Source: a virus (Duplodnaviria > Caudoviricetes). Taken from it: a stretch of 37,298 nucleotides of DNA. A program made the translations under genes and the position numbers. Location of the stretch: IMG/VR virus record IMGVR_UViG_3300032332_000938, positions 1-37,298 of that record; one strand, given 5' to 3'. Below the pieces are notes generated by a model. That model worked only from the letters and a program-made list of their open reading frames with translations. It did not search any database and was not told the origin of the DNA. Numbering within the stretch: the first letter of the stretch is position 1; every line of letters starts with the position of its first letter. Shown piece by piece: positions 4,004 to 37,298 of this stretch.

Positions 4004-4054
4004 GCGCATCTTGTGTGCGTATTTTGTTTTGTCTATTTTTGATTGGAGTCTGTA

Positions 4055-5224: not shown

Positions 5225-5229
5225 TAGAA

Positions 5230-5269: not shown

Positions 5270-5287
5270 ACCTGGGAGGAATAAGTT

Positions 5288-6372: not shown

Positions 6373-6384
6373 AGAGAGGGTACT

Positions 6385-7343: not shown

Positions 7344-7346
7344 GAT

Positions 7347-8978: not shown

Positions 8979-8992
8979 TAAGGGGTTTTAGT

Positions 8993-9460: not shown

Positions 9461-9462
9461 TT

Positions 9463-10269: not shown

Positions 10270-10272
10270 CCG

Positions 10273-11013: not shown

Positions 11014-11033
11014 ATTATTAGAAGAGGTAAATT

Positions 11034-15190: not shown

Positions 15191-15238
15191 TGCGCTTATT
15201 TGTAGGGGTTTTACGGGTACATATAGTGGGGGGATTGT

Positions 15239-15820: not shown

Positions 15821-15821
15821 G

Positions 15822-16541: not shown

Positions 16542-16551
16542 AGGTCGGTTT

Positions 16552-17787: not shown

Positions 17788-17791
17788 TCGT

Positions 17792-23203: not shown

Positions 23204-23436
23204 CCTCGGAAGAGGAATACAAGCTCCGCAAGTTAGGACGATTAGCAGCACGACGCTTAGCTTACCGTCTTCTTATGGACTACCCGGAGCTTATTGATCT
23301 TGCGGTACGACGCGCTCTTGAGCAGGGGGCTGAGTATGAGGGCGCGTCATATCGTAAGACAAAAGAACAACTCCTCGTCGAAGGGGACGAGGAGTTGGCT
23401 GACGCTATATTCTATGAACACCTACGAATAAGCTAG
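23176..23436 (+). CDS. small helical protein, possibly MazG/NTP-pyrophosphatase-like
   Basis: G..Y...EELADAIFY motif; start uncertain. Confidence 0.55.
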   Translation: MGTQNGQALTSEEEYKLRKLGRLAARRLAYRLLMDYPELIDLAVRRALEQGAEYEGASYRKTKEQLLVEGDEELADAIFYEHLRIS

Positions 23437-23654
23437 ATTGGTCTAGTCTCGTAGTAGCCGTCTTTAATTTCGTCGGCTAAGTCTATTTGCCGACACGCAC
23501 AACAATCACCATCCTGGTATTTTTCGTGTGCGTCATACGCGCGTTCTAAATAATAATAGATAGCAAATCGTTCGTCTTTACGCCCACGATTATACGCTTC
23601 GCGAATAGCACTACTAACACTAGAAGCTGCTTTAGATTCGATACTGTCAAGCAT
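23433..23654 (-). CDS. hypothetical protein
   Basis: 73 aa, GGAGG RBS, AY.RG...ER motif and CCAC. Confidence 0.7.
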   Translation of the reverse strand: MLDSIESKAASSVSSAIREAYNRGRKDERFAIYYYLERAYDAHEKYQDGDCCACRQIDLADEIKDGYYETRPI

Positions 23655-23792
23655 CTAATCCTCCGGGTCTTGTTCCACGCCACTACTCTGATACCCGCTA
23701 CACGACGCGCACGCACGCTTCCCATCAAACGCACGCCAACACGATTCTGTAGCAGTAATCATCCGCCGACAAATAGAACAAAACCTATTCAT
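23655..23792 (-). CDS. 45-aa Zn-finger protein (MNRFCSICRR...ACASCSG...)
   Basis: CxxC..CxxC; ATGA overlap upstream and stop abutting the next ATG; not in the ORF track. Confidence 0.65.
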   Translation of the reverse strand: MNRFCSICRRMITATESCWRAFDGKRACASCSGYQSSGVEQDPED

Positions 23793-23911
23793 CGCTGCGG
23801 GCGGAACACAGGCTCGGGAACCTGGATAGGTTCAGTGGGCACAACGGGCACAAGCCACGGTGGGACAATACCACCATTCTTGGGCTGCTTAATGACTGGT
23901 GTGATAATCAT
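23789..23911 (-). CDS. 40-aa Pro-rich protein (MIITPVIKQPKNGGIVPPWL...)
   Basis: AGGAG RBS; fills the operon gap; not in the ORF track. Confidence 0.55.
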   Translation of the reverse strand: MIITPVIKQPKNGGIVPPWLVPVVPTEPIQVPEPVFRPQR

Positions 23912-24128
23912 CTTGTTCTACTCCTGTAAGTGTGTGTTCTACGTTCAGTGCTACGCTCCCGATATTGGTTGCTGCGCCGCGTAGGATTTCTGTGTCTTCT
24001 GATAATTCTGGGAATCTAATAGCCAACTCGGTTTCTTCGATTAGGCTTATAGATTCAAGTACGTATGCGTATGATTGTCCTAATACTTGCAATAGTTCAC
24101 TTAAACTATTCTGAATTTCGGTAATCAC
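23889..24128 (-). CDS. hypothetical protein
   Basis: 79 aa, GTGA overlap with the upstream gene. Confidence 0.65.
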   Translation of the reverse strand: MITEIQNSLSELLQVLGQSYAYVLESISLIEETELAIRFPELSEDTEILRGAATNIGSVALNVEHTLTGVEQDDYHTSH

Positions 24129-24406
24129 CGCTTCGTACCTTTCGCTGCTACACGACCGTTAGCGAGCTGAATCACATTCGACCACTCCCACTTCGACATG
24201 CTAATAGGAAACCCTTTTGTATTTGCGTGATCAACAATATCGCCTAGCGTTATACCAGCATCGTTCTCTTCAAGATCAGAACACTGATCCGTACTAATAA
24301 TCGCATGACCGACACCGTGTGGTCCAGCTGCGTGCATCTGCGCAGCACCCCGTAGTTTCGCCATAAGCGCGTCAACACACACGTCTAACAATTGGTTCTT
24401 ATCCAT
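24125..24406 (-). CDS. hypothetical protein
   Basis: ATG 24406 (MDKNQ) after GGGAGG. Confidence 0.65.
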   Translation of the reverse strand: MDKNQLLDVCVDALMAKLRGAAQMHAAGPHGVGHAIISTDQCSDLEENDAGITLGDIVDHANTKGFPISMSKWEWSNVIQLANGRVAAKGTKR

Positions 24407-24728
24407 GCTTACTGATCGCCTCCCGTAGATCACTAATAGTTTGAATCGCTCGGTATGTAATAGCAAACGCCGCTTCACTCATAGACACATTATTCACACC
24501 ACTGCGCTGCATCGCTTCAACATACGCGCTAGCAGCATCATTAAGCAGTGAGAAGAAGTGTTCAACCGTGACGTGATCCACGCGACTGACCAAACTATCA
24601 ATAGCCTGGTCAGCCGCGTTGGATACTGTGCCGACGTTCGCCCCACACCCAGTACACGTATTCTGCCCACGTTGAATACTCGTGGTATACGCATTACACC
24701 CCAGGTAGTTAGTGCAGGGCTTCGTCAT
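24399..24728 (-). CDS. hypothetical protein with Cys motifs
   Basis: 109 aa, C....C and CTGC; TAATG overlap. Confidence 0.65.
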   Translation of the reverse strand: MTKPCTNYLGCNAYTTSIQRGQNTCTGCGANVGTVSNAADQAIDSLVSRVDHVTVEHFFSLLNDAASAYVEAMQRSGVNNVSMSEAAFAITYRAIQTISDLREAISKHG

Positions 24729-25507
24729 TACACAACCTCAGTCGGATTAAAAGCAGCATCGAACTCTGCTAGCGAATCATCAACAGTCGTAGCTTCAACA
24801 ACCGTTTCAGTAGTAGCAACCGGCTCGCGACGAGTCAGCGTCTTAATCACCGGAATGAACGCATCAATCTGCGCTGCTTGCTCAGCACCCAAATCACTAA
24901 CCGGCGTGAAATTAACGGCACTATAACTATTCGTACCTTTCACCACGCGCTCAGCACTAATCTTTGTAACAACATGATGCAACTTCTTGCCCTTCAGCAC
25001 AATACGCTTCAGCATGTAATCATCAAACCGACTAAGACTCGCCGGGCTCAGCGTTACCAATAGTGGCAGCATCTCCCCGGACGGAAGAATATAAATACGA
25101 CGCTGATTCTTATTAGCTTTCGCACGCGGATTCGCATCCGGGTCCACAATCTGCGCACTACCCCACTGGTTATACGGACAATCAGCAAGCGTTACACTCG
25201 GAGTGGGCAAACCTTTAGCTTTTACATACTCCAACCCAGCTTCGGTCACAACCTGTGTAACACCATCAAGACTATAAGCATGCGGCGAACCCACCATACC
25301 CTTTGATAGCCAGAGGACACTAGAAGCGTGCTGGTCAACAATAACGCCGGTAATATCCTTGGCTACGTCGGGACTATCGGTACCGTTTGGAATCTCAAAA
25401 CCGGAGCCTTCAACTTTCACACGATCAAACGTGATACTCATCCCTGCCAGGTCGGCGGGGTCGATGGTTGCTAGGCTCGGTGTCTCATATTTCACGATGC
25501 TACTCAT
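24728..25507 (-). CDS. putative ssDNA-binding/replication accessory protein
   Basis: ATG 25507 (MSSIVKY); CP.NQWGS, RR.YIL, LSP.SL..F..Y pattern with acidic tail; located in the helicase operon. Confidence 0.65.
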   Translation of the reverse strand: MSSIVKYETPSLATIDPADLAGMSITFDRVKVEGSGFEIPNGTDSPDVAKDITGVIVDQHASSVLWLSKGMVGSPHAYSLDGVTQVVTEAGLEYVKAKGLPTPSVTLADCPYNQWGSAQIVDPDANPRAKANKNQRRIYILPSGEMLPLLVTLSPASLSRFDDYMLKRIVLKGKKLHHVVTKISAERVVKGTNSYSAVNFTPVSDLGAEQAAQIDAFIPVIKTLTRREPVATTETVVEATTVDDSLAEFDAAFNPTEVV

Positions 25508-25673
25508 TGGGTTCCTTGTCTCGTTGTTGTCTGTGATTCTCCGCCCACGCTTTCGCATCAGCAGGAGAAACCTGTGGGGTGCTTTCACCACACGTCGCAC
25601 AATACGCAACCATTCTAAACGGCGCGGATGATGGCCTACGACTCGTACTACTAACAATCACACGATGCTTCAT
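25500..25673 (-). CDS. 57-aa protein with CxxC...A..WA..H motif
   Basis: MKHRVIVS...YCATCGE...AKAWAENH; ATGA overlap; not in the ORF track. Confidence 0.65.
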   Translation of the reverse strand: MKHRVIVSSTSRRPSSAPFRMVAYCATCGESTPQVSPADAKAWAENHRQQRDKEPNE

Positions 25674-26074
25674 GATCTTTTCACCCTCGGATGAATATCA
25701 ACCTGAATCATGCCAGCGAGTTCGTCGGGAATAACCACTTCACTATTCTCGTTAATCATCGCCTCACGCAAGAAAGCATCACGCCGAGCCCAGTGCATAC
25801 TCGGCTGTACCAGGTCGGCGCCACCATTCTGCTCGATCCAATCCACGACCTTCTGCGAATACTCTTTCACCGGGCGAATACGAGTGGTCGTATCGAGCTT
25901 CCATCCAACACCGTGCGCAGTGAACTCTTCGGGTACGTCGCCCCTAATCATTGCGTCTGTCAGCGTTTTTTCTGCGTCGCGTAGTTCTGCTTGTGCTTCG
26001 CGTAAGTTGTACTCTAAGCGGCTTACGCGATCCTGCTTATTGATAATGTTTTGTGTCATGTCTTTATAGTTCAT
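25670..26074 (-). CDS. coiled-coil DNA-metabolism accessory protein
   Basis: ATG 26074 with ATGA overlap to the helicase stop; N-terminal coiled-coil. Confidence 0.7.
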   Translation of the reverse strand: MNYKDMTQNIINKQDRVSRLEYNLREAQAELRDAEKTLTDAMIRGDVPEEFTAHGVGWKLDTTTRIRPVKEYSQKVVDWIEQNGGADLVQPSMHWARRDAFLREAMINENSEVVIPDELAGMIQVDIHPRVKRS

Positions 26075-27411
26075 GCTAGGAGACTCTTCCACTTGTTCTG
26101 TACGAGGTCTGCGATATCCTGCTTACTGCGTAGGCTACTGGTAACAATACAATCCACCGTATCGTCTGCAACAAGATGCAAGTACGTGACTTTGTTCTTC
26201 TGGCCAATACGGTGAATACGGCCGCGTGCTTGCTGGTACTCGGCAAGACTCCACCCCGTTGAGAAGAACACGGCAGTATCCGCCGAGGTCAGCGTGATAC
26301 CAAGGCCAGCAGACTGGATTTGTGCGACGAACACGCGCGTATCCTCATCATCTTGGAATTGTTCAACGATCTCACCACGATCCTTCATACTAACGCTACC
26401 GTCGATAACAACAGGATTCATACGCAGCGATTCAGCAAGACGTGTGATTGCGTGGATCTCGTTTGTGAATCGTGCGAACACCACAATCTTCGACGGGGTA
26501 TCCTGCAGGATATCTTTCAGCGCGTCGATCTTCGCGAATGAAACTTGGTGGTAAGCATCCGAATCGTCTTTCACGAATCCGCCAGTAACCTGTTGTAGTC
26601 GCATGATACGAGTCAGAACATTTGTCGCTACCGCTGCGGTCTGCTCAGAAAGATACGCAATACTTTCCTTCTTCAACTCGTCGTAAAACTTGCGTGCCTT
26701 CGGCTCAAGTTTTACGGGAATATCCACGTCAACAAAATCAGGAAGATCCAGGGCCTCTTCTTTCGTGACAGTATGCGCAATACTATGCGCCTTCTCAGAA
26801 AGCTCAGCGAGCATATCGGCGCGCATGCCAGTAACCATCGTGCCACCACCAGGAAGCGGAACAGTATACGCATACCGCGCTTTGAAAGCAGTATAGGAAG
26901 AACCAAAAATACTGGGATCAAGAAACTGGTAGATACCGAACAAGTCCAAAGCAAGGTTAGCGACCGGCGTGCCAGTCATTGCAAGACGATACTTCGCTTG
27001 CTTACCTAGCTTATAAATAGCCTTCGACTGCTTCGCCGTATGATTCTTCACACGGTGTGCCTCGTCAAGAATCACCATGTCCGGCTTAAAACTTTTCAAT
27101 AACGCTTCTTGAATGGGCGCACTACGACCAATAGCCTCGTAGTTAATAACAACTACTTGTAGTCGCTTATCGGCTTTAGGCATGCGCTTGATCGTATCGA
27201 CGCGCTTCGCTGCCGTACCCTGCGCTGCGACCACTACCGAATCAAACGCACCCCACTTAGCCACTTCTGCGGGCCACACGGGCACCACGCTCACCGGAGC
27301 GATAACCAGTACGCGGCGTACCAGTCGTTTGTTAAATAGTTCGCCCATGATTGCCGTCGCTGTGAGTGTTTTACCACACCCGACATCATGGTAAAGCGCG
27401 AAACTATTCAA
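26071..27411 (-). CDS. SNF2-family (SF2) helicase, main body
   Basis: GCGKT, DEAH, MTGTP, GLGITL, QARGRIHRIGQ motifs; likely TTG start at 27411 with GGAG 10 nt upstream. Confidence 0.92.
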   Translation of the reverse strand: MNSFALYHDVGCGKTLTATAIMGELFNKRLVRRVLVIAPVSVVPVWPAEVAKWGAFDSVVVAAQGTAAKRVDTIKRMPKADKRLQVVVINYEAIGRSAPIQEALLKSFKPDMVILDEAHRVKNHTAKQSKAIYKLGKQAKYRLAMTGTPVANLALDLFGIYQFLDPSIFGSSYTAFKARYAYTVPLPGGGTMVTGMRADMLAELSEKAHSIAHTVTKEEALDLPDFVDVDIPVKLEPKARKFYDELKKESIAYLSEQTAAVATNVLTRIMRLQQVTGGFVKDDSDAYHQVSFAKIDALKDILQDTPSKIVVFARFTNEIHAITRLAESLRMNPVVIDGSVSMKDRGEIVEQFQDDEDTRVFVAQIQSAGLGITLTSADTAVFFSTGWSLAEYQQARGRIHRIGQKNKVTYLHLVADDTVDCIVTSSLRSKQDIADLVQNKWKSLLA

Positions 27412-27761
27412 GGAATCATTACTCCGTACAATCGCATACACATACTGAACGCCTGTTTCTGATGCTGGTACGGCGTGCCATTTACAGGAAGCACCGCATC
27501 TGATAATGATTCACGCGCGTGTAAAGCATCAGCAATCACCGCTTCCTTCCGAGCTACCGCACTAAAAACATCCTCGCTAATATCAGCCTCCGGTAAGCGC
27601 GTAAGAATCAGCGCAAGACTTTCACGAGTACACGGCAAGCGGTACGCGCGACGCGAGCGATCATACTGAACCCCGCCGATACTACGAATCGTTGCAGTAT
27701 CCTTCAACGACACAACACCATCATAAATTATCGTGTCATTATCAAGAAAGAAACTAGGCAT
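27408..27761 (-). CDS. N-terminal part of the split helicase (carries the Q-motif)
   Basis: Ends ...TPYQHQKQAFSMCMRLYGVMIP; HARP-like I..IGG.QYD....AY.LP; stop overlaps the helicase TTG. Confidence 0.7.
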   Translation of the reverse strand: MPSFFLDNDTIIYDGVVSLKDTATIRSIGGVQYDRSRRAYRLPCTRESLALILTRLPEADISEDVFSAVARKEAVIADALHARESLSDAVLPVNGTPYQHQKQAFSMCMRLYGVMIP

Positions 27762-27847
27762 ACGGCAACACATACAATCCGTAAGCAATAATAAGAATTT
27801 CCCAGACTGTATCCACAACAATCCCCTCTCGTCGTCGGTGAAGCATC

Positions 27848-27877
27848 ACCCTACCATATATGCTAAGCGGATGACAA
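27848..27877 (-). promoter_or_regulatory. leftward sigma70-type promoter overlapping a rightward -10
   Basis: Minus strand TTGTCA-18-TAGGGT with TG extension; plus strand TATGCT (27859-27864) 6 nt before ATG 27871. Confidence 0.5.
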
Positions 27878-28260
27878 AACACACAACATACACACTAATC
27901 CTATCCGCGTGGCTATTCCTCATACTCACACTGCCCCAAGCCAAAGCCGCGACACAACACGCACCACAACCAATCATCAACGCCGCACACCACACACAGC
28001 CACCACCACGCAGCACACCACAAAAACGCGCGTGGGTAATCTGCCGCATCTTCCCGAACTGCACACCCGCCGTGAACGTCGCATACTGCGAATCGAAACT
28101 ATCAACACACGCAACAAACGGACAATACAAAGGACTCTTCCAACTCGGAATCCGCGAACGACGCATATACGGGCACGGGCGTAGCGCGTGGACACAAGCC
28201 AGAGCAGCATACACCTACTACCAAATAGCAGGATGGTTGCCATGGTCCTGCAAACCATGA
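27871..28260 (+). CDS. secreted Rpf/lysozyme-like lytic transglycosylase
   Basis: Signal peptide ending AKA; CES catalytic motif, NGQYKGLFQ, Q...A, GW.PW.C. Confidence 0.8.
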   Translation: MTKHTTYTLILSAWLFLILTLPQAKAATQHAPQPIINAAHHTQPPPRSTPQKRAWVICRIFPNCTPAVNVAYCESKLSTHATNGQYKGLFQLGIRERRIYGHGRSAWTQARAAYTYYQIAGWLPWSCKP

Positions 28261-28324
28261 TACTATCCACAAACCAACATAGGTAGCATCCTTAGCTACC
28301 ACGCCCACTCCTAAGGGCACACCT

Positions 28325-28359
28325 AACCCGCTTCAAACCGCATCTTGAAGCGGGTTTCT
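28325..28359 (+). terminator. intrinsic terminator
   Basis: Perfect 12-bp stem AACCCGCTTCAA/TTGAAGCGGGTT followed by TCT. Confidence 0.75.
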
Positions 28360-28370
28360 ATATACCCCCA

Positions 28371-28399
28371 TTGTAACTCCGACACCACACCTATACTAT
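28371..28399 (+). promoter_or_regulatory. promoter for the prim-pol operon
   Basis: TTGTAA-17-TACTAT. Confidence 0.55.
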
Positions 28400-28406
28400 G
28401 CAGCTC

Positions 28407-28490
28407 TGGGCAGGCACACCAAAGTTTCAGGGGGATCCTCGAAGCCTGCCCAAGACACGGGGATCCCCCTGATTACCTGGGGGCAGGCAC
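28407..28490 (+). promoter_or_regulatory. structured 5' leader (15-bp stem; loop complementary to two flanking GGGCAGGC copies)
   Basis: Stem 28427-28441/28458-28472; loop GCCTGCCCA 28444-28452; partners at 28407-28415 and 28481-28488. Confidence 0.6.
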
Positions 28491-30401
28491 ATGAACGAAA
28501 GTCCACTAGCACTCGCACGACTCGGACTACCAATACTACGACTCGACGGCAAAATACCACTACCAGGAACGCGCGGAAGCCACGACGCAACCACCCACCA
28601 AGACCAAATCGGGTTATGGATGGCCGAGCACGACGGGAACTGGGGCATCGCCACCGGCCACCCCCTCGACCCCAACAACAACCTCACCGTCATAGACGTA
28701 GACACAAAACACAACGGCGCCCACAACCTCACCCAACTCGAAACACTACTCGGCAAACTCACACCCACACTCACCATCCGCACCGGCACCGGCGGCACCC
28801 ACCACTACTACAAAACACCTGCACACACACCAATAAAAAACAGTGCAAACAAACTCGCACCAGGCATCGACATCAGAGGCATCGGCGGGTACGTCGTAGC
28901 ACCAGGAAGCACACACCCAGACACCCAACAACCATACGTCACCATCCGCGACTACCCAATCGCAGAACTCCCCTCAAAATGGGTAGACCACCTACACACA
29001 CAAGACACCACCCCCAGCAGTGTCCTTGAAGAAGACGAAGTAATTGTCGAAGGCAGCCGAGACAGGTCACTCTTCGAATACGCATGCCGCCTACGAAGCA
29101 GCGGCGCGAACCCCGAAGAGATCCTCACCGCACTCACAGCGCGTAACCTCAAACGAGTTAAACCACCACTACCCCAAACAGACATCAACCGCATCGCAGC
29201 ACAAGCCGCGAAATACCCCATCGGCGAACGACTCACCACCATCATCACAGACATCGCTGAAACCAGCGGCCTCGTCACCATAAACAACGGCGTAGAAGCC
29301 GTCATCACCCGAGAAGAACACGCCAACAACCAAACAAAAAAACTCGTACGAAGCCTACGAGAATGGTTTGCCACAGAAGACGCAGAAACACCGTACATAA
29401 TCCCAGGATTCCTTGTACACGGCGGGCTCGGAATCATCGCAGGAGAACCCAAAACAGGAAAAAGCTGGCTGGTATACCACCTCATGCTCTGCGTAGCCGC
29501 AGGCATACCCATGCCACCCTACACCTACGAACCCGACGGACCCAAGAAAGTCCTGCTTGTAGCGAACGAAGGAAGCCAAGCAGGTATGAAGCATCGTATC
29601 GCCGCACTCGCCAACGGACTGCACATAAACATCGACAGCATCGCAGACAACATCGCGATCATCGCAGGACACGACTTCACCATCGACAGCGTAGAAAACA
29701 CTGCACTGCTACAACACGCCTCGAATACCGTAGACCTCATCATTATCGACACACTGTCGAACGCTTGGTATGGGAAAGAAGATTCCAACGACGAAATGAA
29801 ACAACTAATTGGCCGCATAAGGCCAATCATTAACAACAAAACCAGTGTCCTACTCGTCCACCACCTAGCCAAACCATCACAAGACACAAAGAGTCGAAGG
29901 CCCGGACTGCGAATGCGTGGAGCGTCAGCACTATACGGCGCTACAGATAGTGGCATCTACCTAACACGAGAACCAAACGACACTACCACTAGCGTAGAAA
30001 CAGAACAAAAAGACACCGCACCAGCAGCACCATTTACATTCTCATGGCCCGAAACCACCATCACCGCATCAGACACCGTAACACTCAACACCAACAGCAC
30101 CATAAAACGCATAGAACCAGTAAAGGAAACCGTGCTTGAGGCCATGGAAAAAGCAATCCTCAACAGCCCCCATGGCATCACAAAAAAAGAAATCAAAGAC
30201 AACGTACCAGGAACACACGCTAGAAAGCTGGAAATCTTAGAACAAAAAGTAGCCAGCGGAGAATGGGTAGCCAGCACCGAATCCAGAACAAATCTCACCG
30301 GAAACACATACGAAGTAGTCGTATACAAAAAAGCAGAATCGGACCAAATACTTACAGCCATGGCCAGTATGCTAGGTGAAGACCAAGTATGGTTCACGTA
30401 G
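28491..30401 (+). CDS. bifunctional primase-polymerase, PriCT-like domain and AAA/RecA-type helicase fusion
   Basis: NWGIATG, VIDVD, TGTGG.HHYY, GIDIRG.GGYVVAPGS.H; EGSRD..LF...PPL; GEPKTGKS, IIIDTL, LVHH, RGASA. Confidence 0.92.
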   Translation: MNESPLALARLGLPILRLDGKIPLPGTRGSHDATTHQDQIGLWMAEHDGNWGIATGHPLDPNNNLTVIDVDTKHNGAHNLTQLETLLGKLTPTLTIRTGTGGTHHYYKTPAHTPIKNSANKLAPGIDIRGIGGYVVAPGSTHPDTQQPYVTIRDYPIAELPSKWVDHLHTQDTTPSSVLEEDEVIVEGSRDRSLFEYACRLRSSGANPEEILTALTARNLKRVKPPLPQTDINRIAAQAAKYPIGERLTTIITDIAETSGLVTINNGVEAVITREEHANNQTKKLVRSLREWFATEDAETPYIIPGFLVHGGLGIIAGEPKTGKSWLVYHLMLCVAAGIPMPPYTYEPDGPKKVLLVANEGSQAGMKHRIAALANGLHINIDSIADNIAIIAGHDFTIDSVENTALLQHASNTVDLIIIDTLSNAWYGKEDSNDEMKQLIGRIRPIINNKTSVLLVHHLAKPSQDTKSRRPGLRMRGASALYGATDSGIYLTREPNDTTTSVETEQKDTAPAAPFTFSWPETTITASDTVTLNTNSTIKRIEPVKETVLEAMEKAILNSPHGITKKEIKDNVPGTHARKLEILEQKVASGEWVASTESRTNLTGNTYEVVVYKKAESDQILTAMASMLGEDQVWFT

Positions 30402-30402
30402 C

Positions 30403-30550
30403 TGGTAGCCGGGTGGTCCCCTGGCCCCCTAAAGGGGGCCTAAGGGGGGGGCTTTCGGCCACCCCCCCGACGGAGACCTAACCCGGCGCTACCAATGCGA
30501 AGTGCCAATGCAAAACAAATAAAACAAACAAAACAAAACGCAAACAAAAG
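30403..30550. other. branched GC-rich palindrome cluster plus CAAAA repeats; candidate replication origin
   Basis: GGCCCCC-TAAA-GGGGGCC, a G8/C7 hairpin, outer stem TGGTAGC-CGGGT/ACCCG-GCTACCA, then (C)AAAAC repeats, right after prim-pol. Confidence 0.45.
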
Positions 30551-30564
30551 GCGCGGGGGGCACA

Positions 30565-31014
30565 ATGGGACCAGAGACAATCATCACCAAACAAATATGT
30601 GACTGGCTCAACCGCCAACCCAAAACCATCGCCGTAAAAATTCACGCCTCAGCAATGCAAGGCAGAGGCATACCAGACATCATCGCCTGCCATCATGGAC
30701 AACTACTGGCAATCGAAGTCAAACGACCACAACTAGGACGACTCACCCAAATCCAAAAATACACACTCCAAAAATGGTCACAAGCAGGAGCAAAAACAAT
30801 CGTCGCAACACACCTAAACGACATCAAAAAACTGATAAACTCAAAACAACACGACGAACAGGAGCAAAGCACATGGAAACCGAAGAACACAAACAAACCC
30901 AGCGAACCCGACAACGAAACAAAATCGTCAGAGACTCGCACCAAAAACACCTCACAAAAATCTTCGCAGCATTCCAACAAGCCGCAGGAGACAGAGGGCT
31001 CGCCGCAGACTTAG
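30565..31014 (+). CDS. VRR-NUC (PD-(D/E)XK) nuclease / Holliday junction resolvase-like
   Basis: E..I, GIPDII, AIEVK, LT..Q, AG motifs; low-complexity C-terminal extension. Confidence 0.88.
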   Translation: MGPETIITKQICDWLNRQPKTIAVKIHASAMQGRGIPDIIACHHGQLLAIEVKRPQLGRLTQIQKYTLQKWSQAGAKTIVATHLNDIKKLINSKQHDEQEQSTWKPKNTNKPSEPDNETKSSETRTKNTSQKSSQHSNKPQETEGSPQT

Positions 31015-31067
31015 CGGACGCAGTAGATGAAGTGATGGATATTCGGGGGGAAGCATGGCCAGTTTGA
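30873..31067 (+). CDS. 64-aa hypothetical protein
   Basis: AGGAG RBS, ATG 30873; overlaps the VRR-NUC tail. Confidence 0.55.
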   Translation: METEEHKQTQRTRQRNKIVRDSHQKHLTKIFAAFQQAAGDRGLAADLADAVDEVMDIRGEAWPV

Positions 31068-31531
31068 ATTTGACAACCGAGCAGGCTGATAAGGCGTATG
31101 AGAAGTGGATTAAGCAGCAGGACGTTCGGCAGTATGTACCCGTCGAGATGGTTGCGCGTTGGATTCATTCGAGTAATTTGAAGCATGAGAACATTCAGTA
31201 TGCGACGGGCATAACGGTGCGGAGTGTTGGTCGGATTGCGCAGTTGGCTCAGAATGTAGTGCGTTCGGATTATGCGCTTCGTATTGCTTGGGCGACGAAT
31301 AATTTTGAGGAATGTAACGAGTATTTGGCGTTTGATCCGCCTGGTTTGGATGGGTGGAATGAAGAGGATCGGTACTGTAGGGAGTGTGGTACTTGGTTTC
31401 ATCCACATTTCAAGCGAGGGCTATGTGAGGCTTGTTATGACGCTTGGATTATGGGGAGGTGTCAGTCTTCGAAGCGGGTGTTGCAGGGCGACATCCCCAA
31501 AACAGGAGTTTTAAGCTGTTCACATGCCTAA
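31055..31531 (+). CDS. putative DNA-binding protein with C-terminal Zn finger
   Basis: CRECG...H..RGLC..CY; possible HTH (ATGITVRSV). Confidence 0.7.
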   Translation: MASLNLTTEQADKAYEKWIKQQDVRQYVPVEMVARWIHSSNLKHENIQYATGITVRSVGRIAQLAQNVVRSDYALRIAWATNNFEECNEYLAFDPPGLDGWNEEDRYCRECGTWFHPHFKRGLCEACYDAWIMGRCQSSKRVLQGDIPKTGVLSCSHA

Positions 31532-31602
31532 CTGGTATGATTCCCTTCATAATGCGTGCGAGCCGCCTAGGAAGGCTCTCACAAGCTCTCAGGGGGGTAA
31601 TA

Positions 31603-31854
31603 ATGTCGGATAAGCACCATAACTTTCAGGATATGGATTCGGAAACGCGAGGAGACCTACTTAGTATGAGCAGTCGCGACCGAGAAGCATTCCTAACTGA
31701 AATCGCTCGGGAAGCAGCGATTGTTGCAGCGCACGAAGCGATTGATCGACTTGAGCAGATGGATGCCGAAGATGAAAAGCCGAAGGGCATGGTTGCCAAG
31801 TTGAAGGATAAGGTAAAGAAAAGCGCCCCGACCGAAGAAGGTCAGGGCGCTTGA
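31603..31854 (+). CDS. 83-aa hypothetical protein
   Basis: AGGGGGG RBS; upstream extended -10 TGGTATGAT (31533-31541). Confidence 0.65.
   Translation: MSDKHHNFQDMDSETRGDLLSMSSRDREAFLTEIAREAAIVAAHEAIDRLEQMDAEDEKPKGMVAKLKDKVKKSAPTEEGQGA
31821..31852 (-). terminator. terminator for the leftward early operon
   Basis: AAGCGCCC.GACC/GGTC.GGGCGCTT stem with a T-rich tail on the minus strand, at the convergence of two operons. Confidence 0.55.
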
Positions 31855-31901
31855 GTCTCCCGACGAAAGGAGCGCGCACAAAACGTGCGACTCTTTTCAG
31901 T

Positions 31902-32483
31902 CTAGCACACTACGCGACGTACCGTATGAAGCGTGACGCTATGCGTGCTGGCATTGTCGCGAAGACTCATCCCTAGACTGTGCTTGCGTTGGATTGATTC
32001 AACAATGGCTTCGTCTAAATCGCGGGGCGGTCTGCCGAGTGGTAGGCCGTCCCGTTTTCGTTGTGCTAGTCCTTCACGTGTTCGCTGTGCGATCATGTCT
32101 CGCTCGTATTGGCCTACTGCGGCCAAAACATGAGCCATCATCTTGCCTGCTGGTGAAGACATATCAAGGTTATCCGAAACGCTGATAAGGATCTTCTGCT
32201 TTAATTCGAGTGTGTCTACCCACTGGCAGAACTGCAGTACGCTGCGGACGAACCTGTCTAGGCGAATAACGATTAGCCCGTCGGCGTGTTCGAGTGCGTT
32301 GATTGCTTTGTCAAGTATTGGCCTCACGCTGGCCGCTCCGCTGGCCTGCTCTTTGAATACGTTGACGATATTGTGGCCGCATCGTTCGGCGTATTCTCGT
32401 ATTGCGTGTTCTTGCGCACCGAAACTGTAGCCGTGGTCTGCTTGTTCCGTGGTAGATACTCTGCAATATGCGACTAGGTTCAT
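31902..32483 (-). CDS. small serine recombinase (resolvase/invertase family)
   Basis: ATG 32483; AYCRVST..Q, SG....RP, RLDR..RS, ER..I..RT..GL, LGRP, short C-terminal HTH; 193 aa. Confidence 0.92.
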
Positions 32484-32818
32484 AGTTTGATTCCCATCGC
32501 TTCGCAGATTTGATTTGCTGTTATCCCAACCGCCCCGCGCAAATTGGCCCAGCTCAGATCGGCCTCGCGCAGATTGGCCTCGCGCAGATCGGCCCCGCTC
32601 AGATCGGCCCAGCGCAGATCGGCCACGCTCAGATCGGCCCCGCTCAGATCGGCCACGCTCAGATCGGCCCAGCGCAGATCGGCCCAGCGCAGATCGGCCC
32701 CGCGCAGGTCGGCCCCGCGCAGATTGGCCCAGCTCAGATCGGCTTGCTTCCCGGTAGTCTTGTTTTCTATCCATTTTGCGTGCTTAACTATGATTCGGTC
32801 GAGTTCAGTCTTGTTCAT
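32480..32818 (-). CDS. pentapeptide repeat protein
   Basis: A(D/N)L(S/R)X repeats; N-terminal L..I...H..W typical of the phage family; AAGGAG RBS. Confidence 0.9.
32535..32745. repeat. 15-bp tandem repeat encoding the pentapeptide units
   Basis: About 14 copies of the CAGATCGGCCC(A/C)GC(G/T)-like unit. Confidence 0.9.
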
Positions 32819-33002
32819 TGGTCGCTCCTTTGTTTTGTTGCACCCATGTAAACACTTCGTTGACATTCCTGGCGGTCGTGCCAGTTAGTGGCTTGGGGAA
32901 TCCTGGCTGTTTGGTCCAGTTGTAGATAGTTTGTCGTGATACTTTGAACGTGCGTGCCAATACGGTTACGTTCGCGAATGGGCCAGTGTGAGTAGTAGTC
33001 AT
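32805..33002 (-). CDS. AlpA/excisionase-like HTH protein
   Basis: [13 protein letters not shown]....GFPKP...EV..W; GGAGGAG RBS. Confidence 0.85.
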
Positions 33003-33042
33003 AGGGTTACTCCTCCGGTATAGTAGTTTGTTGGTATTGCAA

Positions 33043-33083
33043 GCGTCGGCCGGGAATCGAATCCGGCTACAACCATTCGACGC
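33043..33083 (-). ncRNA. minimal tRNA-like element (acceptor-like stem plus T-arm)
   Basis: GCGTCG-AATGGTTGTA-GCCGG-ATTCGATTC-CCGGC-CGACGC, intergenic in the early operon. Confidence 0.5.
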
Positions 33084-33091
33084 GGTAGTGG

Positions 33092-33544
33092 CTATTTGAC
33101 TTCGGTGTACCCGTCGAACCATTCGCCTTCTTTGCGTGTTTTGGGATCGTTGCAGTGATGGTGTGCTTGGGCTAGTGTCATGGGTGGATGCGGTAGTTTT
33201 CTCGATCCTCCTCCATAACGAAAACGCACTATCTTGTATGGATGCATTGACGCGTATTTCTGTGCTATTTCTGCGAGTTCGCTGGAGGAAACTTTGTACA
33301 TGCTCAAATCTGCAGCGGCTAATGCAGCGGCTGATCTCATGTGGGATTGGTGCTTGCTTGTTGTATTACTGTATCGGCGGTCTGTGTGGTAGACGCGAAC
33401 GCTGCCATCTGGCATTGATTCGCGTACTGCGATCACTGCGTTATATGACTTCAAAATCCTGCCGTCGCTGGTAAGTGCGCTTGATCCGCTGGCTGGTAAT
33501 CCCTGTGCCCATTGCTGTGCTACTTGGCGTGCTGTGTATCGCAT
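33092..33544 (-). CDS. early hypothetical protein (two-module fusion)
   Basis: AAGGAG RBS; SY...IA...YS.TTSKHQ module plus YKIVRF...TL.QA..HC.DP.T...WFDGY module. Confidence 0.8.
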   Translation of the reverse strand: MRYTARQVAQQWAQGLPASGSSALTSDGRILKSYNAVIAVRESMPDGSVRVYHTDRRYSNTTSKHQSHMRSAAALAAADLSMYKVSSSELAEIAQKYASMHPYKIVRFRYGGGSRKLPHPPMTLAQAHHHCNDPKTRKEGEWFDGYTEVK

Positions 33545-33580
33545 GATCTTGCTCCTTGTCGTCGATTGCTTGCACTTTCC

Positions 33581-33609
33581 AGCATATCGGATACTTGTCA
33601 CTGTGTCAA
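33581..33609 (-). promoter_or_regulatory. strong sigma70-type early promoter
   Basis: TTGACA-17-TATGCT on the minus strand, directly upstream of the early operon. Confidence 0.8.
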
Positions 33610-33619
33610 CCACTTGGGG

Positions 33620-34010
33620 CAGGCCAAGGCGGTGGCCCATTAGGCCGGTATGTACTCGCATGCGTGCGCGAGATGCGCCGTGCTACGCACTGCGCTGCGT
33701 ATAGGCCGCGTAGCGCGTATTGTGCGTTGCGAGATGCTCACGCAGTGCGCCCGGTGTGCCCGTTGCGTTTGGCGGCGTGGTGGTGTTGCGTTCGGCGGTC
33801 CTGGTGGTGTGCGGGAATCGAATGTATAACGCACACATTGTGTCGTTTTGCAGGTGTTTCCCCGGCAGATGGGGGGGTGGGGTATGCGATGATGCCGCCG
33901 ATCATGGGGGGATACCCCCTACCCCCGCGTGTAACTTTATGATCATTTATATATGACATTGCAGGCATTTTTTTTAATTTTTGGTTTTTGGGTTTTTGGT
34001 TCTGGTAATG
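33620..34010. other. non-coding region upstream of the small terminase; candidate packaging/terminus region
   Basis: Inverted repeats, G-run/C-run hairpin 33871-33926, phased T tracts 33968-34003. Confidence 0.5.
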
Positions 34011-34018
34011 TTCTGGTT

Positions 34019-34534
34019 ATGGCGGGGAGACCGAAGCGTAGACAGCGTTTGGAGGAGGCAGGATTGTGGCCTCCTGATGAGAATAAGATTCCTGAGCGGC
34101 ATAAGTTTTCTGATGATGACCGCGATAAGAGCAAGGCTGTTTTGAGGGAGAAGCGGTTGCTGCAGAGGGCTGGCGCGATTCGTCGTGAGGAGGAGATCCA
34201 GGAGGCGTTGAAGCGTAATGCTCATCGTCATGTTGCTGTGCAGGATCGGTTGTTGAATGCGTTGGAGCGTTTGGCTGAGCGTGCTGAGTCTGGGTCTTTG
34301 GAGAAGGATGATGTTCCTTTGTTGAAGATGTTGTTGGCTGAGGATCGCGCGAATTTGGATCGTGTGTTTGGTAAGACTACGCAGCGTCAGCAGATTGATC
34401 AGCATTCGACGAGTACGCATGTGGATGTGGCGGAGTTGATGAAGGCTGCTCGTGCGTTGCCGTCTGGGTTTGATTCTGTGGGGGATGATGTGGTGTTGGA
34501 TGCGTTGGAGGTGGTGGATGATGATGTTGGTTGA
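34019..34534 (+). CDS. probable terminase small subunit
   Basis: MAGRPK start, helical body, LDRVFGK..Q motif, position upstream of the large terminase. Confidence 0.7.
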   Translation: MAGRPKRRQRLEEAGLWPPDENKIPERHKFSDDDRDKSKAVLREKRLLQRAGAIRREEEIQEALKRNAHRHVAVQDRLLNALERLAERAESGSLEKDDVPLLKMLLAEDRANLDRVFGKTTQRQQIDQHSTSTHVDVAELMKAARALPSGFDSVGDDVVLDALEVVDDDVG

Positions 34535-34655
34535 GACTGAGGTTCGTGGGTTTGGGTGTTTGGTGTCTGATGTGGGTGTGTTGCCTGAGGATGCTGAGTC
34601 TTTGATTCGTGTGTTGTTTTGGTTGAGGTTTCTTGGTTTGGGGGGTCGTGGTTGA
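34518..34655 (+). CDS. small hypothetical protein
   Basis: GGAGG RBS; stop overlaps the next ATG. Confidence 0.5.
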   Translation: MMMLVETEVRGFGCLVSDVGVLPEDAESLIRVLFWLRFLGLGGRG

Positions 34656-34861
34656 TGGCTGGTCGTGTGTCGTATTCGAGGGATTTGATTGACGAGTTTG
34701 GGTTGTCTGCTTCTCGTTTTAAGCATTCTGATTCGGATGGTTATGGTGTTTTGTCTGTTCGTGATATGCGCCGTGTGTTGTGTGCTCGTGTGGGTGTTGA
34801 TATTGAGCGTGAGGCGCTTCGTCGTAGGCGTGAGGAGTCTGGTGGTTCTGGTGAGTGTTAG
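34655..34861 (+). CDS. small hypothetical protein (possible HTH)
   Basis: TGATG overlap; SVRDM...L....GV.I..EALRR. Confidence 0.6.
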   Translation: MAGRVSYSRDLIDEFGLSASRFKHSDSDGYGVLSVRDMRRVLCARVGVDIEREALRRRREESGGSGEC

Positions 34862-35099
34862 TACGAGGTTGTCTGGTTCGTTGATGCCTGATTGTGAGTT
34901 GGTTCCTGTGGTTTCGACGGCTGGGTTTCGTGAGGGTGATGTGGTGCAGTTTGTGACGAAGTTGGAGGATCGGCGTGAGACTGCGTTGGTTTTGTCGGTG
35001 ATTAAGCATTCTGCGTTGGTTGTGGATCGGTGGGAGTCTTCTCGTGGGCAGTTTGGTCCTGGTGCGTTTGTTGAGCGTGTGGGGCGGGTTGTGTTGTGA
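34851..35099 (+). CDS. small SH3/KOW-like hypothetical protein
   Basis: GAGGAG RBS, GTG start; FREGDVVQF motif. Confidence 0.55.
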   Translation: MSVSTRLSGSLMPDCELVPVVSTAGFREGDVVQFVTKLEDRRETALVLSVIKHSALVVDRWESSRGQFGPGAFVERVGRVVL

Positions 35100-35347
35100 T
35101 TTGTGATGTGTGTGGTGGGCCTACGGTTGAGGTGGTTGTGGCTGGGTCTGTGGTTGTTTTGTGTGATGGTGTGTGTTGTGATCCTGGGTGTTGTGCGTTG
35201 GGTGAGTGTGATTCTTCTGGGCGGTCGGGGTTGGTGTCGCATCGTGGTGCGAAGACGCGGATTGTGTCTGGTTCGCGGGGTGTGTGGCGTGAGGTGTCTG
35301 GGTTTGATCCGGTGTCGGGTGTGGATTTGTGGGGGCGTGGGTTGTGA
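35096..35347 (+). CDS. Cys-rich hypothetical protein
   Basis: GTGA overlaps at both ends; CDVCG and further Cys clusters. Confidence 0.6.
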   Translation: MICDVCGGPTVEVVVAGSVVVLCDGVCCDPGCCALGECDSSGRSGLVSHRGAKTRIVSGSRGVWREVSGFDPVSGVDLWGRGL

Positions 35348-37221
35348 AGCCGACGCCGTTTCCTCGTGATGGGTCTCCGTTGGAGCAGTTGTATTGGCGG
35401 TTGGCGTTTGATTTGATGTGGGTTTGCGCTAATTTGGTGAAGATTACGGATAAGCAGAATCGTGTTGTTTCGCTTGTTTTTAATCGGGGTCAGCGTTGGG
35501 TTTATTGGAATATGTTGGATATGGAGCGTCGGGATTTGCCGGAGCGGTTGTGGATTTTGAAGGGCCGCCAGTTTGGTATTTCGACGTTGATGACTGCTGT
35601 TAATACGATTCGTGCGGTGCGTGGTGGTGGTGCGAATGCGTTGATGTTGGTTCATAAGGAGGCGCCTGGTAGGACGATGTTTCAGAAGGTTGAGCGTGTG
35701 TTGAAGAATTTGCCTTCTGTGCGGTCGAATAATCGGGTGATTTCGTTGGCGCCTAAGCCGACTACGCATAATACTGGGGATATTTTGGCGTGGAATACGC
35801 CGGCGTTGAATGCGTTGATTAAGCGTGAGTCTGGTGAGAATGTGGATGCTGGTGTTTCTGAGACGTACCAGTTGGCGCATTTGACGGAGGTTCCGTTGTG
35901 GAAGGATGCGCATCATACGATGGCTGGTTTTTTGCCGACGATGGCGAATAAGCCTGGTACGAGTATTGTGGGGGAGTTTACTGCTCGTAATGAGGGTGAT
36001 TATACGCATGGGGTGTGGCAGTCTGCGATGCAGGGTTTGTCGATGTTTCGTGCGATTTTTTTGCCGTGGTATTGGCATGAGGATTATGTGCGTGAGAGGC
36101 GGGTTGATGATCGTCCGTTTTCGCGTGAGGAGCGGGAGTATCGAGCGATGGTGGCTCGGTTGGGGTATGAGTATCCTCTTGTTGATGGTGGGGGTTCGGT
36201 GCTGTTGAAGAAGAAGTTTGTTGGGTTGAATTCGAAGCGTGGGTTGTTGCCGTCTGATTTGGCGGTTGGTTTTAAGTTGTCTGATGAGCAGTTGTTGTGG
36301 CGTCGTGATGTGTTGGAGTCGTTTCGGGGTGATTTTGATCGGTTTAAGCGTGAGTTTCCGGCGCATCCTGAGGAGGCGTTTAGTACTGGTGGTCGGCGTT
36401 TGATTCCTGCTGGTGTGATGGATGCGTTGGATGTGGCGGGTTCTGCGGTTGAGTTGTTGGATCGTGGTGAGTATGAGGCGTTTCGTGGGTCGAATGGTCG
36501 GTCGAAGCGGGTTTATCGTAAGCGTGATGATGGTCGGGTGTGGCGTTGGGAGGCTCCTCGGGCTGGGGCGTATTATGTGGTGTGTGCGGATCCTGCGAGT
36601 GGTGTGGGTGATGATTTTTGTGGTGCGCATGTGTTGAGGGTGGAGTTTAAGCGGGTTGTGGTTGTTGCTTCTTTTCAGGGGAAGGAGCGGCCGCATGAGT
36701 TTGCGCGTGTGTTGTCTCGGATGGGGCAGCATTATCGGTCTGGTGCGGTTGAGGATTTGGAGGGTCGGGTGTCTGGTGGGTCTCCGTCGTTGGTTGTGGT
36801 GGAGCGTAATGGGTTTGGTGAGCATGTTTTGTATGAGTTGGATCAGACGTTGAGGTATCGTCGGTTGTATCGGCAGGATTTGCAGGGTAAGTCTGATAAT
36901 TGGAAGTATGGTCATCGGCTTGGTTTGGGGATTACTAAGTCTACGAAGATGCCGATTTTGCAGCATTTGGTGCAGTTGGCGTTTGATGGGAACATTGTGG
37001 TTCCGTGTTCTCGGACGAGGGCTGAGTTGCGGTCTTTGATGTTTTTGGATGATTTTGATGCTACTGCTGGTGCGCCTCGTGGGTTGCATGATGATTTGGC
37101 TATGTCGTTTGCTGAGGGTGTGTTTGTTGCGGCTCAGAAGGGGGCGTATAGGAGGGAGTTTTTTGAGTTTGGGGATGTTGGGGATAATAGTGGTAGGATG
37201 TTCCCGAAGGCGGGGCGTTAG
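35344..37221 (+). CDS. terminase large subunit
   Basis: Walker A ILKGRQFGIST, Walker B AHLTEV, coupling motif EFTA, F.PW, FKREFP..PEEAF, nuclease ADPASG...D, VERNG.G, HDDL.M. Confidence 0.95.
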   Translation: MKPTPFPRDGSPLEQLYWRLAFDLMWVCANLVKITDKQNRVVSLVFNRGQRWVYWNMLDMERRDLPERLWILKGRQFGISTLMTAVNTIRAVRGGGANALMLVHKEAPGRTMFQKVERVLKNLPSVRSNNRVISLAPKPTTHNTGDILAWNTPALNALIKRESGENVDAGVSETYQLAHLTEVPLWKDAHHTMAGFLPTMANKPGTSIVGEFTARNEGDYTHGVWQSAMQGLSMFRAIFLPWYWHEDYVRERRVDDRPFSREEREYRAMVARLGYEYPLVDGGGSVLLKKKFVGLNSKRGLLPSDLAVGFKLSDEQLLWRRDVLESFRGDFDRFKREFPAHPEEAFSTGGRRLIPAGVMDALDVAGSAVELLDRGEYEAFRGSNGRSKRVYRKRDDGRVWRWEAPRAGAYYVVCADPASGVGDDFCGAHVLRVEFKRVVVVASFQGKERPHEFARVLSRMGQHYRSGAVEDLEGRVSGGSPSLVVVERNGFGEHVLYELDQTLRYRRLYRQDLQGKSDNWKYGHRLGLGITKSTKMPILQHLVQLAFDGNIVVPCSRTRAELRSLMFLDDFDATAGAPRGLHDDLAMSFAEGVFVAAQKGAYRREFFEFGDVGDNSGRMFPKAGR

Positions 37222-37239
37222 TTTTGTGAGGGGTTTTTG

Positions 37240-37298
37240 ATGGCTGGTATGATGCCGGGGGCTAGTGGGCTTCCTTCTGATGGTGGTTTTCCGATGGA
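37240..37298 (+). CDS. 5' fragment of the Met/Gly/Pro-rich gene continuing at the window start
   Basis: GAGGGG RBS, MAGMMPGASGLPSDGGFPM..., runs off the end. Confidence 0.7.
   Translation, partial: MAGMMPGASGLPSDGGFPM

Follow-up and report, generated by a model that had tools for sequence, protein, structure and literature searches.

Extreme silent-site strand skew of both signs, arranged about two edges, in the genome of a 37-kb tailed phage

Introduction

Skews of silent-site composition are known from several systems that resemble in part the phage genome described here. In bacterial replichores, and in MMR-defective E. coli as described in bioRxiv 10.1101/346874, the G+T-rich strand lies along the fork direction and the skew changes sign at origin-like and terminus-like points. 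The phage is similar along its inferred fork direction, changes sign near a candidate origin and at a terminus-like point, and has both transitions biased in one way, but the effect reported there is about two-fold and here it is more than 100-fold. Unlike replichores, moreover, the phage has a pair of edges separated by 3 kb, skew that spikes at them, and very unequal arms. Vertebrate mitochondrial DNA, according to PMC9561281, also has a single strand that carries both C>T and A>G changes, with a positional gradient and reshaped codons. The asymmetries given there for mammalian codons are 0.93-0.95 for the C>T arm and 0.52-0.70 for the A>G arm, i.e. one sign with a weak A>G arm, whereas the phage has both signs and an A>G arm that is at least as strong. 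GRINS, as presented by Nivina et al. 2021 (PMC8256042), share with the phage intense and correlated GC and TA skews that are strongest at third positions, abrupt switches, and shifts between Gly/Val/Trp and Pro/Thr/His/Gln, and error-prone synthesis was proposed for them in that paper. They are however duplicated chromosomal patches of ~1 kb, while the skewed phage DNA occurs in one copy, and its skew extends over the whole genome and is arranged about two landmarks.

Skew along the genome

The window is the whole stretch of DNA that was analysed, 37,298 nt. Its skew is real, extreme and not due to gene direction. We express it as K, the G+T fraction of the + strand at four-fold sites, with the pentapeptide-repeat gene excluded from pooled counts. 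Silent-site G/T on the + strand goes from 99% just past the likely packaging-start region to ~10% beside the primase gene, and skew of both signs is found within the genome. The zones and features are:

1..21485: G/T arm, running on across the contig join
21486..24128: terminus-like region in which the skew passes through zero; the late and early operons converge close by, at 23,433-23,436
24125..27770, - strand: early operon with SNF2 helicase, DUF7307/Pam3 gp33-like and Pam3 gp34-like genes; + strand K ~0.33
27871..31027: zone where A/C is extreme on the + strand; K is 0.13, and 2/42 in the VRR-type gene
28491..30401, + strand: prim-pol (PF09250) with PriCT_1 and an AAA_25 helicase of the RSF1010 RepA type
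30402..30500: stem-loop, candidate pRN1-type origin; no other 100-nt window of the genome has as stable a DNA fold
30501..30547: non-coding element, A-rich on the + and T-rich on the - strand, 47/47 identical in the close relative G001
30565..30870 (matched part; ORF to 31014), + strand: VRR-NUC/Hjc-type nuclease gene, lowest K in the genome
31025..31034: edge 1, flip from A/C to G/T, within the small ORF 30873-31067
31035..34134: intermediate block, genes on both strands, K ~0.71
33867..34018: pre-terS region, candidate pac by its position
34135..34216: edge 2, where K steps up from 0.72 to 0.99 within the probable terS (34019-34534)
34201..37298: G/T-extreme zone, including terL (35344-37221), 507/512

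The initial annotation had described A/C-ending codons in the + strand genes at 27.9-31.0 kb and G/T-ending codons in those at 34.0-37.3 and 0-3.9 kb, and the counts bear this out, with K at 60/461 (0.13), 525/534 (0.98) and 568/613 (0.93), respectively (Fisher p 8e-197 for the first two, sites taken as independent). The single genes terL and prim-pol have 298/301 and 44/328. Genes on the minus strand follow the local strand as had been claimed, 224/635 (0.35) to the left of the flip and 146/200 (0.73) to the right, and the independence from gene direction holds as well, the coding-strand term being close to zero in the better of the fits that include position (-0.23 to +0.06).

A fade at about 20-23 kb, also proposed earlier, was recovered (K 0.78 at 17.8-21.5 kb and 0.62 at 21.6-23.2 kb); the cumulative skew peaks at 23,489, and zero is crossed near 23 kb. 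A shared 77-aa gene lies here (23203-23436) that looked MazG-like, but a search for family or PDB support for that identity gave none. The label "Rpf-like" for 27871-28260 found no backing, with no match in Pfam, NCBIfam or PHROG. Also not confirmed is a peak of the skew within a few kb to both sides of the flip, since K is only 206/291 (0.71) at 31.03-33.6 kb and the G/T-extreme zone begins at a second step at ~34,200 (34,135-34,216). Within 3-5 kb of each edge the effect is at its largest, and on each strand the G+T enrichment covers the stretch beyond one edge when that strand is read 5'-3'. In the G/T arm K is 0.93-0.96 at 0-2.9 kb, ~0.87-0.93 in conserved virion genes and lower (0.57-0.78) in variable tail genes and beyond 17 kb, a gradient with rho -0.70 across 30 + strand genes. 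The capsid genes are less skewed than their neighbours, and non-coding gaps and variable genes have the same sign of skew, more weakly.

Both transition classes are affected about equally. At 34-37 kb the GC skew ranges from +0.45 to +0.55 and the AT skew from -0.33 to -0.57, and the four-fold sites at 34.5-37.2 kb amount to G424:A1 and T408:C8 (G343:A0 and T488:C6 in G001). The A>G change is at least as enhanced as C>T; ln[(T/C)/(G/A)] is -1.8+-0.9 in the extreme zone against +0.6 near the zero-crossing, which are equilibrium ratios and not measured rates. Leucine codons are shifted too (terL has TTR 56, CTN 4), and GATC occurs 13 times within the 3.1-kb extreme zone. Correlated GC and TA skews with absolute values >0.15, as in GRINS, are present at 34-37 kb, while the GRINS duplication of >500 bp at >80% identity was found nowhere in the window, where the skewed DNA is single-copy. 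The shift in protein composition that had been reported is real, but only modest: terL has gained more V/G/F/W/C than it has lost against 24/25 homologues, and prim-pol is richer in T/P/H/N/Q/K than 6/6 distant homologues, the homologues in both comparisons not being independent of each other.

The two edges

The sharp flip placed earlier at ~30990-31040 is confirmed by a change-point at 31,028 (support 31,025-31,034), where K of all third positions goes from 0.10 to 0.79; it divides the small ORF in which it lies, with 4/50 before and 7/11 after. In G001 edge 1 is inside the next gene, at the equivalent of ~31,360 and thus ~330 nt further on, which means that the flip is not a fixed site. The intermediate block holds a 158-aa HTH-like gene, a serine resolvase gene, the pentapeptide-repeat gene and other variable genes. 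Edge 2 has the same landmark, the probable terS, in the window, in G001 and in the distant relative G002, terS and pac being assigned by position only. The pre-terS region has an inverted repeat of G/C runs and then an AT-rich and a G/T tract before the probable terS; its 24-nt run of G/T only, at 33,978, is the longest in the genome, and the region is identical to G001 at 43/61 and 63/91 positions. The inverted repeat is no more stable than shuffles (z -0.9 and 0.05), no fold at 30960-31070 or 34120-34230 is significant, and promoter-like sites at the flip are at chance level (5 vs 5.0).

Prim-pol and candidate origin

The prim-pol has 636 aa. Its helicase is a RecA-fold AAA_25 and not of superfamily 3, matching the RepA-family structure 1g8y with E 8.6e-8 (TM 0.76 by target), and its C-terminus, read from the topology of a predicted model, is probably winged-helix-like (residues 548-614). 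An exonuclease domain was not detected in it, the 48 ORFs scanned contained no DNA polymerase or exonuclease family, and a search of the scanned ORFs for a mutator gene gave no deaminase or polymerase family. The earlier guess of an origin at ~30.4-31 kb gains an origin-like candidate in the stem-loop at 30.4-30.5 kb, which ranks 1/744 windows in folding (z -3.6) and has a G001 counterpart that ranks 2/779 with an identity of only 47/99. The 47-nt element beside it may be an unwinding or helicase-loading site. Edge 1 sits 0.5-0.9 kb from the candidate origin, at a position that shifts between relatives, and the hairpin and prim-pol C-terminus also differ between relatives.

This arrangement is similar to the pRN1 ORF904 type as described in PMC4234260, with a prim-pol, a helicase and a C-terminus predicted to be winged-helix-like, and with a stem-loop of ~100 nt downstream of the rep gene that has diverged beside conserved DNA; pRN1 has however an SF3 helicase, and the origin of the phage is a candidate. 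The IncQ plasmid RSF1010, in the account of PMC8567376, also combines an AEP-type primase with a RepA-family helicase. In the phage the two are fused, and no separate RepB' or RepC, iterons or inverted ssiA/ssiB pair were found. With SPP1 and its theta-to-sigma replication (outlined in PMC3485210) the phage would share two functional sites, inferred in its case, packaging by terminase, and a nuclease of the resolvase type, which might function in restart primed by recombination; in SPP1 the primase and polymerase come from the host, and equivalents of its G38P, G35P and G34.1P were not identified in the phage. It differs from the protein-primed type of phi29 and PRD1, as no pPolB, terminal protein or inverted terminal repeats were detected.

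Relatives and assembly

The skew pattern is common to G001 and the more distant G002 phage. Between the window and G001, 88/93 of the four-fold differences in terL are G-T swaps, so that these sites evolve freely within two letters. The A/C arm gradient is not significant in G001 (rho -0.28, p 0.40), and its prim-pol has a 1-kb patch with weak skew. K in the G002 phage falls from 0.91 to 0.06 (rho -0.86, 32 genes in assumed order), with early genes that are co-oriented with the late genes and prim-pol, as seen directly on contigs C54 and C55; its helicase is of the DUF927/Cch type, unlike that of the window, and its capsid genes have a low K (0.48) although the phage is skewed. Some relatives by capsid are weakly skewed (L011 0.54-0.56, L014 0.48-0.66). 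K reaches its minimum immediately after the replication gene in 3/3 phages. Three other prim-pol phages, two of them lacking an annotated DNA polymerase, have no skew (K of their genes 0.32-0.75), and a prim-pol is thus not sufficient for the skew. Beyond G001, scans of viral sequences with prim-pol, terL, capsid and the 47-nt element gave a single terL locus of 25% identity, and a metagenome scan with prim-pol returned no further relative.

One source contig covers 23,013-37,298, across the flip, contigs of runs X3 and X4 join over it in the same order, and G001 is collinear with the window, which together rule out an assembly chimera at the flip. Both assemblies, window and G001, read through the 31.0-33.9 kb block; both contigs break inside repeats, and a terminal repeat was not found in the assembly.

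Discussion

A replication-linked, strand-specific mutation process acting on the genome is supported, because the skew is independent of the coding strand, graded, conserved in two relatives and not a chimera. This part of the model in the initial annotation stands, but a single origin with divergent displacement disagrees with the data, because there are two edges 3 kb apart and a flip that moves between relatives, the profile looks more like edge spikes on plateaus than a linear ramp of single-stranded time, three known strand-displacement replicons are unskewed and the A>G arm is far above that of mammalian mtDNA. The fallback offered with that model, a strand-specific mutator process, is at least an equally good fit. 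A spike-on-plateau model is the best in-sample in the window and in G001; in blocked cross-validation it is favoured in the window (2546 vs 2567-2693 for the others) and is worse than all other positional models in G001 (2206 vs 2039-2096).

We give a probability of about 40% to the reading that the two-edged bias is the footprint of uncorrected G-T mispairs on the leading strands of two oppositely directed starts. The prim-pol/RepA-type helicase would load at the stem-loop and 47-nt element (30.40-30.55 kb), and leftward synthesis would be primed at a short site of variable position, 0.5-0.9 kb to the right. Rightward synthesis would have its own start, the dominant one, at the terS/pac region, where recombination from a 3' end cut by the terminase might provide the primer. 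Prim-pol, with no proofreading domain detected, may copy the first kilobases of each leading strand and place T against G and G against T. The partner strand would be copied more accurately by the host; the 3-kb block between the starts could be copied either way and so stay intermediate. Several observations speak for G-T mispairs: the independence of gene direction, including the co-oriented G002 phage, edge 2 at the probable terS and the lowest K after the replication gene in 3/3 phages, a stem-loop anatomy like that of pRN1, two strong transition arms, the lack of a DNA polymerase or exonuclease family in 48 ORFs, and terL sites that vary within two letters. Against them stand the extra assumption of a movable primer, needed because the A/C zone ends 0.5-0.9 kb right of the stem-loop, and the size of the bias, as MMR-less E. 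coli has both transitions biased with the same polarity but, in the data given in bioRxiv 10.1101/346874, only two-fold where >100-fold is needed. One phage-like prim-pol with Mn2+ misinserts dATP and dGTP, which is not G/T-specific. The three unskewed prim-pol phages, the poor cross-validation of the spike model in G001, the flat A/C arm and weakly skewed prim-pol patch of that phage, the assignment of terS and pac by position, and the weakly skewed capsid relatives count against the mispairs as well.

Asynchronous strand displacement of the IncQ or mtDNA kind, from two priming sites and with deamination of C and A on long-lived displaced ssDNA, has the correct polarity, and mtDNA has both the C>T and the A>G gradients; the helicase is like RSF1010 RepA, and RSF1010 replicates in the leading-strand mode only. 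A two-parameter linear model of single-stranded time also beats two plateaus in the window (AIC 5148 vs 5311, CV 2578 vs 2693), but it underfits the 0.99 zone and loses to a step model in G001. We find displacement somewhat unlikely, as phi29 (21 genes, 0.44-0.68), PRD1 (16 genes, 0.43-0.66) and the IncQ backbone, with an IncQ-3 plasmid as control (7 genes, 0.41-0.58), are all unskewed, the A>G arm is no weaker than the C>T arm, the G002 phage has the same pattern with another type of helicase, and no matching pair of ssi-like hairpins was found in the window. Linear virion DNA with a terminal repeat of ~3 kb (31.0-33.9 kb), where end-primed synthesis or resection and refilling marks G/T inward and the repeat is mixed, would account for both edges and the intermediate block in one step; its polarity suits end-primed displacement, and 3/3 phages have edge 2 at their probable packaging genes. 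It is nevertheless unlikely, because between close relatives the left edge moves by ~330 nt, the skew crosses zero far from the centre (~27 vs 7.5 kb), neither a terminal protein nor a pPolB was detected, and both assemblies read through the block.

Local recoding as in GRINS, with patches rewritten by error-prone repair or gene-conversion synthesis and no genome-wide replication polarity, matches the keto signature, the abrupt changes and the amino-acid shifts, and the segments are indeed patchy in the window and G001, with flips within ORFs. The skewed DNA is however single-copy, its polarity is ordered genome-wide and conserved in three phages, and the patches fall on variable or swapped domains, which makes this decidedly unlikely. 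Selection for strands of only G/T or only A/C, through secondary structure, avoidance of restriction sites or codon/tRNA preference, gains something from the incapability of two-letter strands to form Watson-Crick hairpins and from the shifted leucine codons, but we hold it very improbable, since the same host tRNA pool reads terL with G/T ends and prim-pol with A/C ends, GATC persists in the extreme zone, and the capsid genes, where codon selection is expected, are the less skewed ones. Restriction-site avoidance is rejected on the palindromes retained in the extreme zone. A transcription-coupled bias, or a chimera or recent module swap at 31 kb, has the zero-crossing near the operon convergence of the window and the variation of the prim-pol C-terminus and hairpin in its favour, yet is hardly credible: coding-only models are worse by 900-1300 AIC units, and on these fits and the minus genes that follow the local strand, transcription or codon usage is rejected as the cause.

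Conclusions

That a phage clade recodes its genome to two letters per strand through almost pure G-T wobble errors of its prim-pol, on DNA begun at the origin and, primed by packaging, at the terminase cut site, and that the same engine drives skews of the GRINS type, is a speculative extension which we think rather unlikely. If the mispair reading is true, silent-site composition would map the starts of DNA synthesis in an uncultured phage, with one start tied to the packaging region. A 636-aa enzyme and a 150-nt element would then be a small, defined system for telling polymerase mispairs from ssDNA damage as the cause of extreme keto skews, a question left by GRINS. A bias of this kind alters protein composition, and gene calling, binning, host prediction and trees can all be misled by it.

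The genome and its strand bias

The window is a single virus record of 37,298 nt, and we treat its map as circular because both ends lie within one low-complexity gene and their sequences nearly adjoin in a close relative, G001. It carries genes for an SU10-type capsid, portal and adaptor, for the large subunit of the terminase and for lysis. It also encodes an SNF2 helicase, a serine resolvase, a nuclease of the VRR-NUC/Hjc type and a prim-pol to which PriCT_1 and an AAA_25 helicase are fused; a scan of 48 ORFs turned up no DNA polymerase family. The landmarks are:

28491..30401, + strand, prim-pol gene (636-aa product)
30402..30500, stem-loop
30501..30547, 47-nt element
31,028, flip of the skew (first edge), within ORF 30873-31067
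about 34,200, second edge
34019-34534, probable terS
35344-37221, terL

The probable scaffold gene and its neighbour just before it start with a duplicated N-terminus (2470-2527 and 2777-2834, 76% identical over 58 nt), and a tail-region gene has 66-69-nt repeats (10451-10965) with no counterpart in G001. At 31902-32866 the short serine resolvase/invertase lies beside a pentapeptide-repeat gene, in a genome without an integrase, and the G001 assembly breaks within the repeat of the latter gene.

The G+T fraction of the + strand at four-fold sites (K) is 525/534 for the + strand genes of 34.0-37.3 kb, against 60/461 for those of 27.9-31.0 kb. Two-fold sites behave in the same way, as seen from terL (T129:C4, G146:A0) and prim-pol (T16:C123, G11:A88). 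Minus strand genes follow the local bias of the + strand (K 224/635 left of the flip, 146/200 right), and on the same side of the flip + and - genes agree (K 0.66 versus 0.73, p 0.27; our p values and AICs assume independent sites, which overstates their certainty). Models with the coding strand alone fit far worse than positional ones, so that the initial annotation was right to see the skew as independent of gene direction. Its sharp flip near 31 kb was recovered as a change-point at 31,028, but that annotation had missed a second step at about 34,200, where K goes from 0.71 to 0.99. After this step K falls along 30 + strand genes (rho -0.70) and passes 0.5 near 23-24 kb, which bears out the fade previously placed at about 20-23 kb. 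At 22929-23013, inside the amidase gene and close to the zero-crossing of the skew, two contigs of the probable source run stop with adapter-like tails, and this may be a mere coverage dip.

Shape models were fitted outside the intermediate block (about 31.0-34.1 kb). Judged by AIC, the best fit to the window and to G001 alike is a soft step to which exponential spikes are added at the two edges, the right spike extending over about 4 kb; blocked cross-validation backs this model in the window and not in G001, where plain steps perform best, and a linear single-stranded-time model improves on the step in the window only. A gradient is therefore present, whatever its form.

Landmarks at the two edges

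Directly 3' of prim-pol lies the DNA fold that ranks first for stability among 744 windows of the genome; its counterpart in G001 ranks 2 of 779 and is identical at 47 of 99 positions, while the non-coding 47-mer that follows is the same in both. As described in PMC4234260, the origin of pRN1 is a stem-loop of about 100 nt after a prim-pol-helicase gene, divergent in sequence and with conserved flanks, and the window resembles it in having a divergent stem-loop after such a gene beside conserved DNA. A PDB sequence search with the prim-pol helicase, run along with a fold search, matched RSF1010 RepA only, and the predicted model ends in a C-terminal helix-helix-helix-strand-strand unit. The C-terminal domain (30090-30401) is unlike that of three close homologues, which agree among themselves, and the adjoining stem-loop also differs from G001; from sequence comparison it is possible that an origin-binding domain and a candidate origin were swapped jointly. 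Just upstream of prim-pol there is a 15-bp inverted repeat (28427-28472, z -2.6), possibly an operator or a terminator.

The second edge falls within the gene at the expected terS position, although no match in our family searches confirms that identity. Pac sites are frequently found in or beside terS.

Relatives

G001 (39,018 nt) is collinear with the window at 68-84% identity across long aligned blocks. The proposed comparison with a prim-pol-bearing relative gave the same profile, with terL at K 283/285 and a minimum after prim-pol. The G001 flip, at 37,814, lies one gene further on than the ORF that holds the flip in the window. Of the first 95 scored codons of that further gene, 82 have G or T at the end in the window versus 17 in G001, and its remainder is alike (35/53 and 36/54). 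In two sequencing runs, X3 and X4, the flip is likewise bridged by contigs in unchanged order, which are mostly G/T there. The G001 prim-pol contains a weakly skewed patch of about 1 kb (35358-36342, equal to 15958-16942 of locus L006; K 0.48) over its linker and helicase portion, which suggests a domain import.

A more distant phage, with a capsid 66% identical to that of the window, is spread over five contigs in the genome bin G002; from synteny they appear to be one phage, their order being deduced in the same way, and the three contigs tested showed no overlapping ends. On contig C54 its early genes point the same way as the late genes, on contig C55 the same way as prim-pol, and its helicase is of the DUF927/Cch type. 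In the inferred contig order, K declines over 32 genes (rho -0.86), starting at 0.91 in the terS-like gene and reaching 0.06 two genes past prim-pol, and the G/T onset is 70-100 nt upstream of the terS-like gene. Short inverted iteron-like repeats after its prim-pol (L018 4670-4860) replace the GC stem-loop. A 77-aa gene common to all three phages (window 23203-23436; conserved E-Y...EEL pattern) may be MazG-like, but family and PDB searches gave this no support. In four short capsid-bearing contigs the skew is weak (L011, L014), moderate (L012) or strong (L013). The G002 bin is labelled Candidatus Saccharibacteria and holds phage contigs adding up to at least 33 kb (L015, L018, L024, L028, L029), which are either contamination or a clue to the host, co-binning in itself being no evidence of host.

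Origin of the skew

Phi29 and PRD1 replicate by strand displacement. So does IncQ (PMC8567376). The view that displacement is enough by itself fails on these controls, since K stays at 0.41-0.68 across all 44 scored genes of phi29, PRD1 and the IncQ backbone, and because three other prim-pol phages are unskewed, neither displacement nor prim-pol alone is sufficient.

The explanation we favour is that a non-proofreading enzyme would leave mispairs on one strand only. Uncorrected replication errors in E. coli bias both transitions in the direction of the window, albeit just two-fold in the data reported (bioRxiv 10.1101/346874). We rank deamination on long-lived ssDNA second; in mammalian mtDNA, the model for such damage, the A>G arm is much weaker according to PMC9561281, whereas here it is strong, with G:A 424:1 and T:C 408:8 in the extreme zone (343:0 and 488:6 in G001), and a stronger skew does not bring a higher ratio between the arms in any of the three phages. 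A terminal-repeat model comes third, behind both deamination and one-sided mispairing.

Our literature search, which covered few subscription journals, found no phage described as having a two-letter skew across its genome, and weaker cases may figure in older surveys of strand asymmetry in viruses. GRINS share the skew signature, but as described in PMC8256042 they are defined as duplicated patches, which does not hold in the window; the supplement of that paper lists phage-associated elements that may bear on it. Further literature is PMC3269016, PMC8567376, PMC8718748, PMC11724360, PMC7557826 and PMC3485210. The skew, with its apparent link to the packaging region, is real and shared at the level of the clade, and is an exceptionally strong form of replication-associated strand asymmetry.
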